A DNA stretch of 47,218 nucleotides from Emiliania huxleyi CCMP1516. Taxonomy: Eukaryota. Shown here one piece after another: positions 9,694 through 46,345 of this stretch. The stretch lies in the NCBI RefSeq assembly GCF_000372725.1, contig NW_005201259.1, forward strand, positions 353,949 to 401,166, given 5' to 3'. The notes under the pieces are model-generated. The model was not told the origin of the DNA, did not search any database, and worked only from the letters and a program-made list of their open reading frames with translations. How positions within the stretch are numbered: the first letter of the stretch is position 1; every line of letters begins with the position of its first letter. The translations under genes and the position numbers were made by a program.

Positions 9694-10926
9694 TCATGTA
9701 GAGGCTTGCGCGGCAGCGCGGTTTCTCTTCTTCGCACCTCCGCCCTGCGCGGCGACGGCGCGCCCGTGCGCCTCCGCCTCCGCCTCGTCGTCGCTCGGCG
9801 GGGCAGCACCCGCCGCCGCCGCCGCCGCTGCCGCCGCCGCCCTCGGTGTGGCTGCTCCGCGCGCGTGCCGCTTTGTCGCCCTCTGCCCGCTCGGGGAAGA
9901 AGGCGGCCGGTCGGCGAGCAGCGAGAGTGCAACCGCACCGGCCATGACGTCTGCCGGGTCGAGGCCCTCCTCCTCCTCGCAGCCCGCCCCGGACGGCCCC
10001 GCTGCGCCCCCCGCCCCAAAGCCGTCCCGGCAGCGCGAGCTGTCCCGCCGCCCGCCCTCCAGGACACCGCCGAGCGCCCTTGCCCGCGGCGACGCCTGCT
10101 CCGGCGGCAACATGTTGTACCGCGCGCGCGCGAGCGCGGCCTACGAATGGCCATCAGCTAGTCACGAGTCGTTGATGGCTGACAATTCAGCCTGTCGTAT
10201 GGAGAAGAGAGCCGCCTCCTCGGCGGTGCCAAAGACTCCGAGGTGGACGTCCTTGCCCCCCTCCCACACGTGCAGCTTGTACTTTCTGCTCGCGCGTCGG
10301 CTCACGTCCTTGTAGCCGCTGTTGCTGTTGCAGCTGGTGACCAGGGTGAGGCCCTCCCTTCCCGCTTGTCTGACCGCCTCGGCGCCGGCGGCGGAGGAGG
10401 GCGCGGGCGGCGGCGCGGGCGGCGGCGGCGCGGTGAGATCGGTGGTGTCCCTGCCCGCCCGCCTGCGGGCGTAGAAGAGCGCCGCCTGCTCGGGCGTCGC
10501 GAAGCGGCCGAGGTTGACGAGCTTGCCGCCATCCCTCACCTGCAGCGTGAACTTGTTGCTGCCGTGCTCCTTGGGGTTGTTGAAGACGCCCTTGTAGCCG
10601 CTCTTGTTGGCGCTCGTGGCGAGGGTGAGGCCCTCCTTCTCCGCCTGCCGAACCGCGGCCGCGCCAACCGCAGACGGAGCGGGGCGGGTCTGCTTCATCT
10701 TGGCCGCGTCAGCACGGCCGTACTCTGAGCGAGCATAGGCGATGGCCGCCTCCTCGGCGGTGTCGAATTGGCCGATAAAGATGCGCTTGCCGCCGTCCAT
10801 CACCTTTGCCTCGAACTTCTTCGCGCCGCGGTTGTAATTCACGCACTTGTATCCAGTTGTGCTGTCCTTGCGGATAGCTGGGATCAGCACGAGCTCGTCT
10901 TTGGAGGGCGACTCGCGGTGAGCCAT
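9694..10926 (-). CDS. AP2/ERF-domain protein with three AP2 domains; exons 10926-10216 and 10140-9694 (385 aa)
   Basis: Three repeats of GYKxV...GGKxxxLGxFxTxEEAAxxYAR. A 75-nt GC-AG intron (10141-10215) completes the third domain (TAEE|AALARARY) in frame. Confidence 0.9.
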
Positions 10927-11949
10927 TTTGGAGCGACTCGGAGAGCGCAAGCGGCGGCGGCGGCGATGGAGCAGAGTGCGCGCTGAGACTGGTGGACGCG
11001 GGCCTTCTACCCTACCTCCCTGTATCGGTCGGGGTTATGGCGGGTTTACAGGCCTTGTCAGGTTCTCGCTCATCCACCCACCCTCCTCGACCTTCCCGAC
11101 GATACCAGCGGGCCCGCCTCCACCTAGAAGACTGGTGCTGGGGGGTGAGTGTTCCCTGCTTCCGGCTTCTGCATATACCTGAGCTAGGGCCTGAGAGGCC
11201 TCGCTGGAGCCGAGGCATAGCGGCGTGATTTCGGACCTCCACCACCCCAGTCTTGTCCCGGGCTGAGTGGCATCAACACTAGCCCGCCCGCTGTTCCTAG
11301 GGTTGCGCGAGCTGTCCGAAGCTGTCACAGCTAGGGTTGCAAGACCTCAAAAGCCGGTCATCCACCACCCGAAAATGGCCGCCCTCCCCTCCAGAGCGCC
11401 GCCACAGCCGTCGTGCAAAACGGCCCAACCACCGACACGACCGCCACCGTCCGGCGGCAAGGCATACGCTCTGAGGCCGTAGAATGGGTACGGCTGCATC
11501 TAGCTCTTTGCGCGGGTCAAGTGTACCTGGCCTCCCCTTGATGGTCCTAGGCGGGCTTCTCCACAGGAGTCGATCTTGGAGAGGGGCAGTGCTCACTCTG
11601 CACTCTCTGGTCGGCCTGCTGTATCGACCCGTCGTGGCTTCACATCTACCTCGTGCCAGCGGCTCTCCTCGGCACCAGAGCGCTCCATCATACGCCAGAG
11701 CCTGTCCTGGGGCGGGTCCCCACGCCCTTACAATCATACGCATAAAAAAACCCGGACTCAATCGATTGTACTGCGGTGGTGTGAGTGAATGCACCATGAG
11801 CAAAAACCTGACTTGGCCTGTACGAGGTGTGAACGTGAACAGAGTAGCCAGATCGCTGTCGATCGTTACGGCACGCATGGGGGGCCTCCCGGACGTATGA
11901 TGTGACGCCCGGCCGGCCCGGCCTTCTGCCTCTTGCGACCCGATGCTTC

Positions 11950-12350
11950 ACTCATGCTCGGTGTGAAGCCAGGGCGGCATCGCGCCGCCAACCAAGAGAA
12001 TCATCTTCAACTTCGCCAAGAGGTCGGCAGCCCGAGCGCCGTCGACCGCACCGACTACGGCACAGCCTCCGGCAGCGCCCGGGGCTTCGCCCAACACCAC
12101 TCGCAACAGCTCTCGCGCGCCGCCGTCAGTGGCGATGCGCAAAACATCAACAACGCTGCTCGCAACATGCGTGTCGCGCACTCATTCATGACCGGTCTCA
12201 ATGCCCCACCCCCCTGCGCGCGGGCCTTCTAAGCCCGCGGGTAGTCCCCCCCCATCCCCAGGGCCTCCAGGGCTCGCACCTCAACCTCTCACAGGCCAGC
12301 GCACAGCGCCATAGGAGGTATTTTCTTCTCAATAACAAGGCTGTGAATCA
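11950..12350 (+). mobile_element. Degenerate 3' fragment of a CRE-like (RLE) non-LTR retrotransposon plus 3'UTR
   Basis: GGIAPPTKRIIFNFAKR / AVDRTDY..GFAQHHSQQLSRAAVSGDAQNI aligns with GGGFSPTAVLKLRRLARK..VDRTAY..FMSHHAERISLSVVRG..I of the 19972 ORF. Frameshifted; stop at 12230-12232. Confidence 0.75.
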
Positions 12351-12857
12351 CGCCCGCTGTGAAAACATTTGGCGGGGGATTTTTTCGCCAGTCAATAGAG
12401 CATGAAAATACCTTTCAGACGGTACCTTTCTGTCCTCCAGAGTCGAAGAACTCGACCGGTGGCTGGCCGCCAAAGTGGCTGGACGGCGCCGCGGCGCACA
12501 CTGGTGAGCCGCGGAGCACACCAAGGGAGCTGTCCTCGGCGCAGCCGATCAGCTCCCGCGGCCTGGGTGATGGCAGTGGCACTCTCTGAGGCTCCCTGAT
12601 TTTTTCTGGTATTGGTTGAGCACTCTCTCTGGTCACCATCGCCGGGCGAGCCTGGCTCTCGCTGCACAGCGGCGCGACCCGCGGTGAGGCTGCCGATCGT
12701 CGAACTGGGCTTAGCTCTCAGTCAAGATATTGTGCATATGGTCGGTCTCTACAATATCTTGACTGAGCACGACCGATGAATCGGCAGCACGGAGACAGGA
12801 AGGCTCGCTGTGTGAGTCGGCCACGCAGAGGGTCGGAACCTGGGTCGCAAGAGGCTA

Positions 12858-13382
12858 GGCCCGCGGGTAGTCTCACCCCATCCCCAGGGCCTCCAGGGCT
12901 CGCACCTCAACCTCTCACAGACCAGCGCTAGCAGTAGGCAGCTAGCCTCTGAGGAGGGCGTCCATAGACACCTCACAAGACCCCACACACGGTCTCGTCC
13001 GTGCCTCGCCGGCCGGCGAGATTGCTGGAGGTAGAGCAAGCCTGCTCTAGCCTCGCATGTCACTTCCTGTTGTCTGTTGTTTGTTGTGCCCTTGTTTGTT
13101 CTCTTGGCACCTTGGAGTGCTGGGGGGGGCGACAGGGAGGATGTGGCCTTGAGTTATGTGCACGCCAACTCAGGGTGTGTGGCAGCCACAGCTGGCTGTG
13201 TGTCTTGTGAGCCTGTTTGTGTCTGTGTGTCGCTCGTGCGTGTCGTCATCATCTGTCTAGCGTCCCCCATACCGCGTTGGTGTCCAGTCCGAGCCTGGCT
13301 GTTCTTCACCTTTCTACCTACCTAACCCTACCAGCGCATAGCGCCATACGACGTATTTTCTTGTCAATAACAAGGCTGTGAA
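12858..13382 (+). mobile_element. Second copy of the same 3'UTR, split by a 401-bp insertion
   Basis: 12858-12928 matches 12233-12302, and 13330-13382 matches 12295-12348. Confidence 0.8.
12929..13329 (+). mobile_element. Non-LTR/SINE-like insertion with 8-bp TSD (accagcgc) and (CTAC)n-like tail
   Basis: accagcgc at 12921-12928 and 13330-13337. Ends ctacctacctaaccct. Homologous to the 45862-46345 element (gcgtcc.cccataccgcgttggtgtcc). Confidence 0.8.
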
Positions 13383-13558
13383 CAGAAAGACTGTGTTACG
13401 CCTTCCTATCAATCAATCAAAACATGACCCCGGACTGGGGTTTGCGTGCTTTGTTTTTTAATTTTTTAGGTATGTTGTTGGATTAGTCCCTAGGCTGGAT
13501 GAATGAGGTGGGTGTTCCAAACGATGGCCGCTTCTGGTGAACCTTCTTTTCTACCAGG

Positions 13559-14085
13559 CTAGGATTGAGAGCAGCCTCGCTCTCAATCCTAGAAGTCGAA
13601 GGATTGTGAGCAGCACTCCTCGCAATCGTAGCATCTCTGTGCGATTGTGAGCACCCACGCTCGCAATCCTACATCTTCTAGGACTAAGAGCAGCTCCGCT
13701 CACAAGGTGACTGGTGACGCCTACGACTACTACCAGCGCGCTCACAATCCGAGCAAACTCTAGGGTTGCGAGCAGCTTGGCTCACATGAATCCTGGCAAC
13801 ATGCCTCCGATTGCGAGCAGAAGCGCTCGCAATCCTATAACTTTCGCCGATTGCGAGCGACACCGCCCATAGTCCTACGACTTCTAGGATTTGCGAGCGG
13901 GTCCCCTCGCAATCGGTGCGATCACTGTTTGGATTGTGATGAGACCCTCCCGGCGCGCTCACTCACAAGCGCTCGCGGCTGGAGCGATTGGGAGCGCCCT
14001 CCTTGTGCGCCTGCTAGCCAACTAGCTATACTAGCAGTCCTTGGATCTTTGGTACGATTGTGAGCGCAGCCGCTCATAGTCCTAC
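13559..14085. repeat. Array of about 12 palindromic units, period ~40-42 bp (GATTGYGAGC-N6-GCTCRCAATC)
   Basis: For example ctaggattgagagc-agcctc-gctctcaatcctag (13559-13592, perfect 14-bp stem) and gattgcgagc-agaagc-gctcgcaatc (~13809-13834). Confidence 0.9.
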
Positions 14086-14168
14086 AAGACGTTCCTGGTC
14101 GGTTGCGCAACCTTTTTGCCGACCTCCGAGCCCAGATAGCGCCGTCGCCGCCGCCGTCGTCGCCGTCC

Positions 14169-14202
<34 letters not shown>

Positions 14203-16050
14203 TGCCGCCGCCGCCGCCGCCGCTGCCGTCGTCCCCGCCATTGTCGCCGTCGTCGCCGCCGTCGTCGCCGCCACCACCATCGCCGTCGTCCATCTCATCG
14301 GCTCGGCCGCCCTGCGAGGTGGGAGACGAGCTAGGCCCCGCGCTCCCAGGCTGCGAGCCCGCCGCCCCACCCTTCCCAGAGGTCGGCCTGAGGCGACGGA
14401 TGCCTAGCCCGCCCTCTGAGGCGGTGATCCTGACGATGGCAGCGCAGTGGTTGTCATGCTGCAGGAACAAATGGAGCACGTACTGCGGCTGACTCGACTC
14501 TGTCGGCCAGATGAACTGCGGCATGCAGCGCGCGCCCTCCCGAGTGATAGAGTCGACGACAATCGGCGTGTGCCAAAGAGGTCGGCCACGCCAAGCAGGA
14601 ACCCGTCACACCCGTATGCGCCGCCTCGAACGCCAGCGAGGAAAGCCGCGAGATCAGTGTCGGCGGCTAGGGCCCGAGACCTGTGCACCGACAGCAGCAG
14701 CTGCTCCACTGTGTCGAGGGTCCGTGCGTCGACGGTATCGTGTGGCCGGCGGACGACTCGGCGCAGCACCTCGGGCATGGCCAGGTGGCGCGCCACGGCG
14801 AGGCGCAGCTTGCCACTCGCGAGCTTGGCGTCCCAGGAGGCGCCGAGGGTTAGCAGCCCGTGCGCAGCCAGCAGGGCCTCGGGCAGCAGTCTGCGCAGCT
14901 CCCAGGCGCACGCCGCGACCACACAGTCACCGGACGAGTCTAGGTCGACCGCCTCCCAGTGGCAGTCCTCGCACCCAATAGGCGGGAAGTCAGCACGCTG
15001 GGAAGTAGCGCGCGCGAGCATCGGGAAGCGGCCGGGGTCGATCCCGCCTGGCAGGCGCTCTGATGCAGGCGCGGTCGCAAAACGGACGCCGGCGGCGTCG
15101 AGCAGGGCCGTCGTGTGCATGAGGTCCCTGACGGCGTCCATGTTCCACAACCCGCCCGAGCTCGTCGCACCGCCCACGCCGCCCGCCACGCCGCCCTCGC
15201 CGCCTCCGCCGCCCTCCGCGGTGACGGCGCTGCCACCCGAGGTGTCGGCCGCGGTGTCGACGGGCATCTCGTCCTCGTCGTCGTCGCGCTTTCGGCGGCG
15301 ACTCTCCCGCGCTGCGGGCGGCTGGCACGGCGCCCTCTCGCGTTGTGGGCAGGCCTCTGGCTGCGAGGGCGATGGCGAGGCAGCCGCGCCGCTCGGCTCC
15401 GACGGCGATGCGACCGCCTCCGAATCGGGCGGGGTCGCCTTCGAGACGGGCGAGGTCGCCTCCTCGGGCGGGGGCGCACGGGGCGCGCAGCTTGGCTCGC
15501 GGGAGGACGCAGTCTCCTCTCCCCGCGCCGAGCGCGACCTCGCCGGCTGAGATCGTGATCGTCGCCGAGGCTCGCCCCCGCGACCGCCCGTCACCGCGGC
15601 GCTGGGCGTCTGCCTTCGCCGCCGCCGCCGCCGCCGCCGCCGCCGTCGCTGCCGCCGCCGCCTTCGCCGCCGCCGCCTCTTTCCGCACCCTCGCCGCCCC
15701 TGCCTTGGCAGCCTTATCGGCGATCCTTTGGCTAGACCGCCCAATCTCTCGCGATGGCGCGTCCGACTTAGGCTGGCTCCGGCGCGCACTGCGTTGAGCG
15801 CCGCCGGCCCTGAAGTGGAAGAGCGAGCAGAGGGAGGAGGAGGCGTCGCTAGCGTGGTGGGCGCCGGCGGGTCGTCTCTCTTGGTCGAGCCGCGCCCGCT
15901 CGCGACGCTCCGCCTCGAGGCTCTCCTTAAGCCTCTGGCGCGCCACGCGCTGTTTCTCTTGCACTTCGCCGACGGCCGACGCCAGCCGCTTGGCTTCCTC
16001 CAGCTCCTCAAGCTAATGAGCAGGTCCGAATGACGCCTAATGAGTTTCAT
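13922..16050 (-). pseudogene. Coiled-coil + OTU-like cysteine protease gene with frameshifts
   Basis: VDLDSSGDCVVAACAWEL (Cys loop), KLRLAVARHL, GAYGCDGFLLGVADLFG. After removing 2 nt at ~14570 it continues TPIVVDS..VLHLFLQHDNHCAAIV (His loop). A further frame switch lies near 15580. Confidence 0.7.
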
Positions 16051-16842
16051 CAGGCGCCTCGACGTCAGACGGCAGTTTTGGCACTGATTAGATTCGTTAA
16101 CTAAGCCCCGCTAATTAGTTCATCAGGCGCCTCCACGTCGGACGACAGTTTCGGCGATGAGATCATCGTCACCGTCATCGCCACCGGGTTTGAGCCCCCG
16201 GAGCGGGGAGGAGGAGGAGGAGGAGGAGGAGGAGGAGGAGGGCGGAGCGAGGCGGCGCCGCAGCAGCCAGTCGACTTGTTTCAGTTCCGGCCGCCGCGGC
16301 GGTGAGGGAGAGGGAGAGAGGGGCGGGGTGGGCGGGGTGGGCGGGTAAGGTGGCGCAGGAGAAGCTGACTTTGGGTTTTCTTGTTCGTTAGGGGGCACGA
16401 GAGCAGCGGGGACTACGACGCGTACCTCTCTCGGAGGCTCAACACGCGGGGGCCGGATGCTACATTCTTCTTCTTCTTCTTCTGAGTGGTGAATGATTCA
16501 TCCATAGGCGCGACGCGTTGGGGCGGCCGGGGGGACATGTGATGAACTGTTATTACCAGTTATTAATGATTCCTCGCAGGCTCGACACGTACTGCTCCCG
16601 GTTTAACAGTCTTCTTCATCTGAGTTATGAATGAGTACTCGCAGGCTCGACACGTACGGCTCCCGGATCGCCGCGCCGCCTCCGCCTCCGCTGCCCGGGT
16701 CCGATGCGGGGATATGAAGCAGCATAGCAGCAAGGCGGCCTGNNNNNNNNNNNNNNNNNNNNNNNNNNNNNNNNNNNNNNNNNNNNNNNNNNNNNNNNNN
16801 NNNNNNNNNNNNNNNNNNNNNNNNNNNNNNNNNNNNNNNNNN

Positions 16843-19575: not shown

Positions 19576-19823
19576 TTTTTTTGTTTCGTTGGCCGAAGCC
19601 TCGTTGGCCGAAGTTGTGTTTATTTATTTAAGGATAAATTTCAGATTACCCGATTTTTGAGATTCGCCTCGCAGATTACCCGCCGAACGATGTTTTCCTG
19701 CTTAGCACGATTTCCGTAAAACCAGTTTACCCAGTCTCCCACACCCAATTCATGTTTCAGCTTACCCACTCGCTAAAATTTCTCAGGGCAGATTACCCGG
19801 CGACTTGAGCACTTGAGCACTGG
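19576..19823. mobile_element. Probable DNA-transposon/MITE end with subterminal repeats
   Basis: Five copies of cag(a/t/c)ttaccc, duplicated ttggccgaag and acttgagc, AT-rich, terminating in ...cactg (CAGTG on minus). Confidence 0.45.
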
Positions 19824-19902
19824 ATAGGGTCGATTCCGCATGGTACGGGACCCCTCGATCGTCTCGCCCCCTCACTGGTATGTTCATTGGGGGGGTCATT
19901 TA

Positions 19903-45861: not shown

Positions 45862-46345
45862 GATTGATTGATTGATGGGAAGGCGAAACACAGTCCGACC
45901 AACGACTGGGACACCAACGCGGTATGGGTGGACGCAGGACGGGCGATGACGGTCACACAGGAGCGACACACAGAACCACAAGACAAGACACTCAGCCAAA
46001 CTGACTGCCACACATCCTGAGCGAACTTCCCTAGTCACCCGCGGCCGGACTCCATCCGGCACGCGTCGCTGGGCGCTCAGAGCCGCGTCCCCTGCTCGCC
46101 ACCCCGCGACGCCCAAGGCGCCCGAGCGAACGACAGGCGGCACGCGAAGACTGGTTGCAATCCCGCCGACCGCCAGGCCGCGGGATGATGCGTGCGTGGT
46201 CTTGTAGTGGGTCTCGGAAGCTCTCCTCTCGGGCTAGGAGCCAGCCCCTCTCCCTTGCCCCCGGAACACTGTGTCCGAGTCGAGGCGTGTGCTTGCTGGT
46301 CGACGGCCGCGCGCGGTTGGCATTGTGACGAAGGTTGCGCGCGGC
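45862..46345 (-). mobile_element. Truncated retroposon with (ATCA)n tail inside a (TC)n tract
   Basis: Homologous to 12929-13329 and to the 32-nt stub at 13389-13420 (gactgtgttWcgccttccYatcaatcaatc). GA-rich repeats on both flanks. Confidence 0.7.

Follow-up and report, generated by a model that had tools for sequence, protein, structure and literature searches.

The palindromic repeat array that we followed up in the genome of Emiliania huxleyi CCMP1516 is very probably the subterminal part of a long, modular terminal inverted repeat (TIR) of a foldback-type Mutator-like transposon (MULE), and its palindromes are likely to be double-stranded sites for the transposase. Such a reading assigns the array to a type of transposon already known and would do away with its interpretation as an RNA. 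The earlier note on this DNA had suggested, among other things, protein-binding sites at the end of a mobile element. The location is borne out by a shared terminus, by 9-bp target duplications and by inverted arrays around a DDE transposase; that the transposase binds the palindromes we infer by analogy with Muta1. The window (the whole stretch of DNA analysed, 47,218 nucleotides) is rich in GC, looks like a eukaryotic scaffold and contains five N gaps. The array is present in it once, and neither a second element end nor a transposase was found within it.

Each unit of the array consists of a 10-bp arm, GATTGNGAGC, a 6-nt loop and a 10-bp inverted arm, GCTCNCAATC. Between 13559 and 14085 there are 14 half-sites with at most one mismatch from GATTGNGAGC, compared to a mean of 0.13 (maximum 3) in 1000 shuffles and to no more than two in any other 527-nt stretch of the window. 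Successive left arms are spaced by 39, 41, 39, 82, 45, 40, 40, 43, 54 and 70 bp. Taking the 82 as a double step, this gives about 13 unit positions at a pitch of ~40 bp, with the spacings of 54 and 70 at the right end; nine two-armed units out of these ~13 positions were clear enough for scoring. The description of about 12 units at ~41-bp spacing, looser at the right, with conserved arms and ~6-nt loops, thus holds, and the array was rightly said not to be a CRISPR. Its extent had been given as 13559–14085; the array is there, but the feature starts 23 bp further left, at 13536 (Table 1).

Table 1. Features of the transposon copy and its surroundings, in window coordinates.
Feature	Position	Strand	Remark
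9-bp flank, likely left copy of the target-site duplication	13527..13535	+	partner absent from window
Terminal motif of transposon end	13536..13558	+	begins GGTGAACC; boundary in 21/33 loci; loose ends
Outer TIR module, palindromic units 1–7	13559..13837	+	inverted at both ends of other copies
Inner module, units 8–13	13838..14092	+	matches the opposite end of the autonomous element in its inner part
Break point	14090..14100	.	expected start of the inverted outer module replaced by ~8–11 nt of filler
OTU-like reading frame	14101..16050	-	outside element family; 3' end lost at junction

The left boundary was revealed by other copies. A scan of metagenomes with a two-unit pattern detected 33 loci with the array, all aligning to 13536–14092, and those counted in the table share a sharp end with the window and have unrelated flanks beyond it. 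Contigs from the public runs X12, X14 and X15 have loose ends at 13536–13537, and in one locus (L038) the array is found with another end. Summed contig depth at 13483–13673 is 14,368–416,797 in four runs, as opposed to 5–102 at 16348–16538, which marks a repeat and is not a measure of copy number. A viral scan gave 12 loci with a single palindrome each in the match table.

In non-autonomous copies the order is outer module, inner module and inverted outer module, and the outer module is found inverted at both ends in L013, L017, L022, L043 and L044. Seven duplicates (L025, L026, L029, L033, L035, L039 and L044) were dropped before segment conservation, pairing and duplications were counted. 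Four non-redundant copies have two ends, and the 9-bp target duplication is perfect in L013 (744 bp) and L022 (656 bp), imperfect in L017 (1225 bp) and absent in L043 (831 bp); these short copies consist mostly of arrays. The element prefers the target nnCA(C/G)TGnn: in 13 of 21 hand-listed ends (one per insertion, except for L043, which contributes both) CA(C/G)TG lies at flank positions −7 to −3, with 0–2 occurrences at nine other offsets, and the motif is symmetric about the centre of the 9-bp target. The 9-bp flank of the window copy occurs once in the window and fits this consensus poorly.

One locus, L044, is a 6.7-kb element with inverted arrays of at least 566 bp and 98.9% identity at its two ends, and L036 is 99.6% identical to it. 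Between the arrays lie two convergent genes: a long open frame (P0003, more than 1,000 aa) and a second gene that seems to be spliced. The terminus is joined to P0003 in L036 and L037 and to the second gene in L015 and L032. On whether array copies occur together with a transposase gene, a check that had been proposed, inverted arrays flank a DDE transposase frame in L044. The near-identical ends and the open frame suggest, as far as sequence can tell, recent activity in a marine alga, likely a haptophyte to judge by GC content and the marine runs. The many insertion sites, together with the open frame of L044, hint indirectly at cut-and-paste transposition. The second gene (L044 4438–6050, minus strand, apparently in several exons) has no Pfam match; its Atlas matches, to clusters of ubiquitin C-terminal hydrolases at 0.87, are a lead that falls short of the reliable range, and its C-terminal stretch is one that we take to be SAP-like.

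P0003 carries the catalytic signature D-D-CxxH-W-E. Among 35 aligned proteins the residues are conserved as D 28/29, D 32/33, the H of C/D-xx-H 34/35, W 30/32 and E 29/29, with the first position of C/D-xx-H being C in 23 and D in 11. The C/D-xx-H motif after the second D is a feature of MULE transposases, although this motif and the W are common to hAT transposases too and are not diagnostic alone. Standard profiles say little about this protein: P0003 and eight close homologues had no MULE or SWIM match in a Pfam search, and a PDB sequence search with P0003 returned nothing. It has 215 representative relatives at E up to 0.001, and in 31 distant homologues Pfam detected MULE below threshold in two, a ZSWIM RNase H-like domain in three and a weak SWIM domain in three. 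The first Atlas matches (0.93) fell mostly in MULE clusters, a lead only. A C-terminal CxC...CxH stretch of P0003 has a SWIM-like appearance. Two distant relatives (P0020, P0024) have a C-terminal chromodomain, and there is a weak PDZ-like region in the close group.

An earlier structure model from seq­uences of seven proteins (pLDDT 43) gave no usable structural match. A later model, of the catalytic domain and with a pLDDT of 94, has an RNase H core with a helical insertion domain. Its best Foldseek match is ISCth4 (E 3e-4, in alignments with rmsd 14–17), and ISCth4 also leads the VIA ranking (Z 12.4, rmsd 4.8, 229 aligned), followed by Hermes (11.3) and the P element (9.7). MULEs have long TIRs, over 100 bp in most families. 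The element family has the DDE fold (in L044 and L036, not in the window), the C/D-xx-H motif and W, the long TIR (in L044) and, in two of four two-ended copies, perfect duplications within the 8–9 bp of MULEs. A conserved W before the E is described for MULE transposases in the accessible part of PMC5499845.

Judged by sequence comparison, the window contains about two-thirds of a non-autonomous copy, which breaks off at ~14092 and is followed by the OTU-like frame. Starting at the first unit and up to 14092, four copies (L028, L043, L027 and L038) match the window collinearly; past that point they run on into the inverted outer module. Runs X1, X12 and X14 show different sequence next to the OTU-like frame at 14101, whereas the element is extended by further units at 14089; no contig bridges the junction among the matches listed. 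The break falls at the base of a long fold-back loop, and the sequence beyond it resembles a half-site, a possible microhomology. The junction is perhaps a deletion, which may have used microhomology at the loop base, or a misassembly. The copy is likely immobile, because its right outer module and terminus have been lost.

The OTU label of the neighbouring frame is our assumption from its motifs, and the frame had no Pfam match. It is broken at 14568 in the window, where five runs (X1, X11, X12, X14, X15) have a 2-nt difference and lack the break. None of the 33 array loci carries it; together with the other continuation in three runs, this indicates that the link between array and OTU-like frame is local. 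The array does lie at the 3' end of this frame, as had been said, but the suggested co-occurrence of array copies with an OTU gene was not found among the metagenome loci. The frame has contig cover in three RNA libraries, lacks it at 14438–14628 in X6 and X2 (contig absence not being informative), and has one transcriptome homologue, P0013. Possibly the frame is cargo of some other mobile element.

The earlier note had also read the variable arm position as covarying and had taken this for selection on pairing, with a processed multi-hairpin RNA as a possible product. The pairs it cited exist (A:T in unit 1, T:G in units 2–3, C:G in unit 7), but A:A in unit 4 and C:A in units 6 and 8 had been omitted. 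The position is Watson-Crick in four of nine window units where permutation expects 3.3 (p=0.44), a test of low power because units are few and copies related, and one with which weak covariation is still compatible. With G:U allowed it is paired in six of nine on either strand (p=0.20 and 0.31), and the 21 non-Watson-Crick arm pairs include six G:U on the + strand and six on the − strand. The comparison was widened to 42 array segments, from 26 non-redundant metagenome loci and the window, whose copies are related by descent so that conservation counts are not independent. In these, a double change is seen in unit 1 in 1/25, and the variable position reads CG 53, TG 41, CA 40, AT 24, AC 18, TA 12 and others 16. 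Selection on pairing is thus not supported. Decay of CpG was rejected as the source of the T:G and C:A pairs, with transitions at 29/1846 CpG positions and 76/4702 elsewhere. Divergence among the segments (positions below 13920) is 2.4% in arms, 10.5% in loops and 3.7% in linkers. Arms conserved more than loops, with neither covariation nor strand bias, are as expected for DNA sites read as sequence, and the pattern fits a half-site with one free base.

With this in mind, a multi-hairpin RNA processed to functional units of ~40 nt is hardly credible. The array does fold with a z of −11.0 on the + strand (−8.7 on the − strand), and pieces of it occur in contigs of three RNA libraries, which does not imply transcription and carries no information on strand or processing. 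However, any palindrome array is expected to fold, and the few units show neither the covariation nor the strand-specific pairing of a structured non-coding RNA. An Rfam search found no match inside the array (two nearby, both E 4.5, lie outside it), and if such repeats gave rise to small RNAs, by-products of silencing would be the simplest account of them. It is also unlikely that the units of the transposon end act as single-strand or cruciform hairpins, or bind the second-gene product or a host factor, although both strands fold strongly, unit 1 is a perfect 14-bp stem, the window copy is broken at the base of the fold-back loop and the second gene ends in the presumed SAP-like stretch. Against this stand the missing covariation and the fact that several units fold weakly on the + strand (−0.1 to −7.4 kcal/mol), each still keeping one good half-site. 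Readings as REP/RAYT or Helitron sequences, raised by CTAG/GTAG beside the hairpins, which we take to be typical of them, were dropped in view of the TIRs, the 9-bp duplications and the DDE enzyme. We regard it as very improbable that the element belongs to hAT or to the haptophyte 'hATv' group instead of the Mutator superfamily. Hermes, a hAT transposase, does come second to ISCth4 in VIA, and Shanks (hATv) likewise has ~6.8 kb and two ORFs without Pfam matches; but in Shanks the duplications measure 7 bp and the TIRs 26 bp, and in Ace (hAT) the duplications are of 8 bp and the termini of 12 bp (PMC10138859, accessible text), whereas the duplications here are 9 bp and the TIR exceeds 560 bp. 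The Atlas lead and the sub-threshold Pfam matches point to a MULE. Four end motifs of this element had no match in eight text supplements of PMC10138859.

Several known systems resemble the proposed Mutator-like element. Maize MuDR has 9-bp duplications, long TIRs and two convergent genes, as seen here. Closest in organization are two type 2 foldback MULEs of Aedes aegypti, Muta1 and Muta5, whose long TIRs combine a terminal motif with tandem subterminal repeats and variable linkers, with 8–9-bp duplications, many non-autonomous copies of varying repeat number and a DDE transposase with the conserved W (PMC5225508 and PMC5499845, as far as accessible). The same part of PMC5499845 defines type 2 foldback elements by a TIR of subterminal tandem repeats able to form secondary structure, which the TIR described here is, and reports for Muta1 that more subterminal repeats give stronger binding, are required for cleavage and raise excision. 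In the accessible part of PMC5225508, 10 of 12 long-TIR families of Aedes have subterminal repeats, with 8–9-bp duplications. There are differences too: the sources give Muta1 a 145-bp TIR, 12-bp repeats with 3–4-bp linkers, no apparent target preference and one 504-aa transposase, whereas here we find a ~600-bp TIR, 10-6-10 dyad units at ~40-bp pitch, a clear palindromic target, a transposase frame that exceeds 1,000 aa and, besides it, a second gene. ISCth4 (PDB 6xg8), the closest solved fold to the catalytic domain, belongs to the IS256 family, similar to MULE transposases; it differs in being bacterial, with 31-bp TIRs, 8-bp duplications and copy-out/paste-in transposition (PMC7780238, accessible part), and in having 9% identity. 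MuDR elements are assigned by TIR likeness and 9-bp duplications in PMC3627910, the accessible text of which does not describe this family.

According to the Mutator-like reading, transposase subunits would load onto GATTGNGAGC half-sites arranged as dyads with a 6-bp spacer. The ~40-bp pitch approximates four helical turns, so the dyads would lie on one face of the DNA. The loaded transposase would then pair the two element ends, cleave at the GG terminus and integrate with a 9-bp stagger; efficiency would rise with the number of units, as for Muta1. One may go further and speculate, tentatively and with doubts prevailing, that this is an algal Mutator lineage invisible to Pfam, with arrays of operator-like dyads read by dimers and placed about four turns apart, a sequence-specific 9-bp palindrome as target and, in convergent orientation, an accessory gene whose product is possibly deubiquitinase-like with a SAP-like tail. 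If true, this would put a ready-made non-autonomous vector system for a microalga within reach. For transposon specialists, the interest lies in the dyad units, the clear target consensus and a divergent transposase missed by standard profiles. A literature search found no description of this element family; Repbase was outside that search, so the family is possibly catalogued there.

Other repeats lie close to the transposon copy. An interspersed repeat with an (ATCA)n tail (13169–13420 and 45864–46021) looks like a retroelement 3' end or a SINE and has the highest summed depth in the region. A short repeat family occurs in pieces at 12229–12347, 12855–12928 and 13331–13382; in L016 a copy of it directly borders the transposon end, and in L028 one is close to that end. 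The repeat at 19803–19899 is found inside or beside the array in six loci (L014, L017, L022, L023, L029, L033), possibly as nested insertions. An isolated long hairpin with ~17-bp arms at 12717–12768 is unrelated to the array, and on the minus strand, at 10162–10950, lies a gene for a protein in which AP2 domains are repeated (Pfam E 6e-10).
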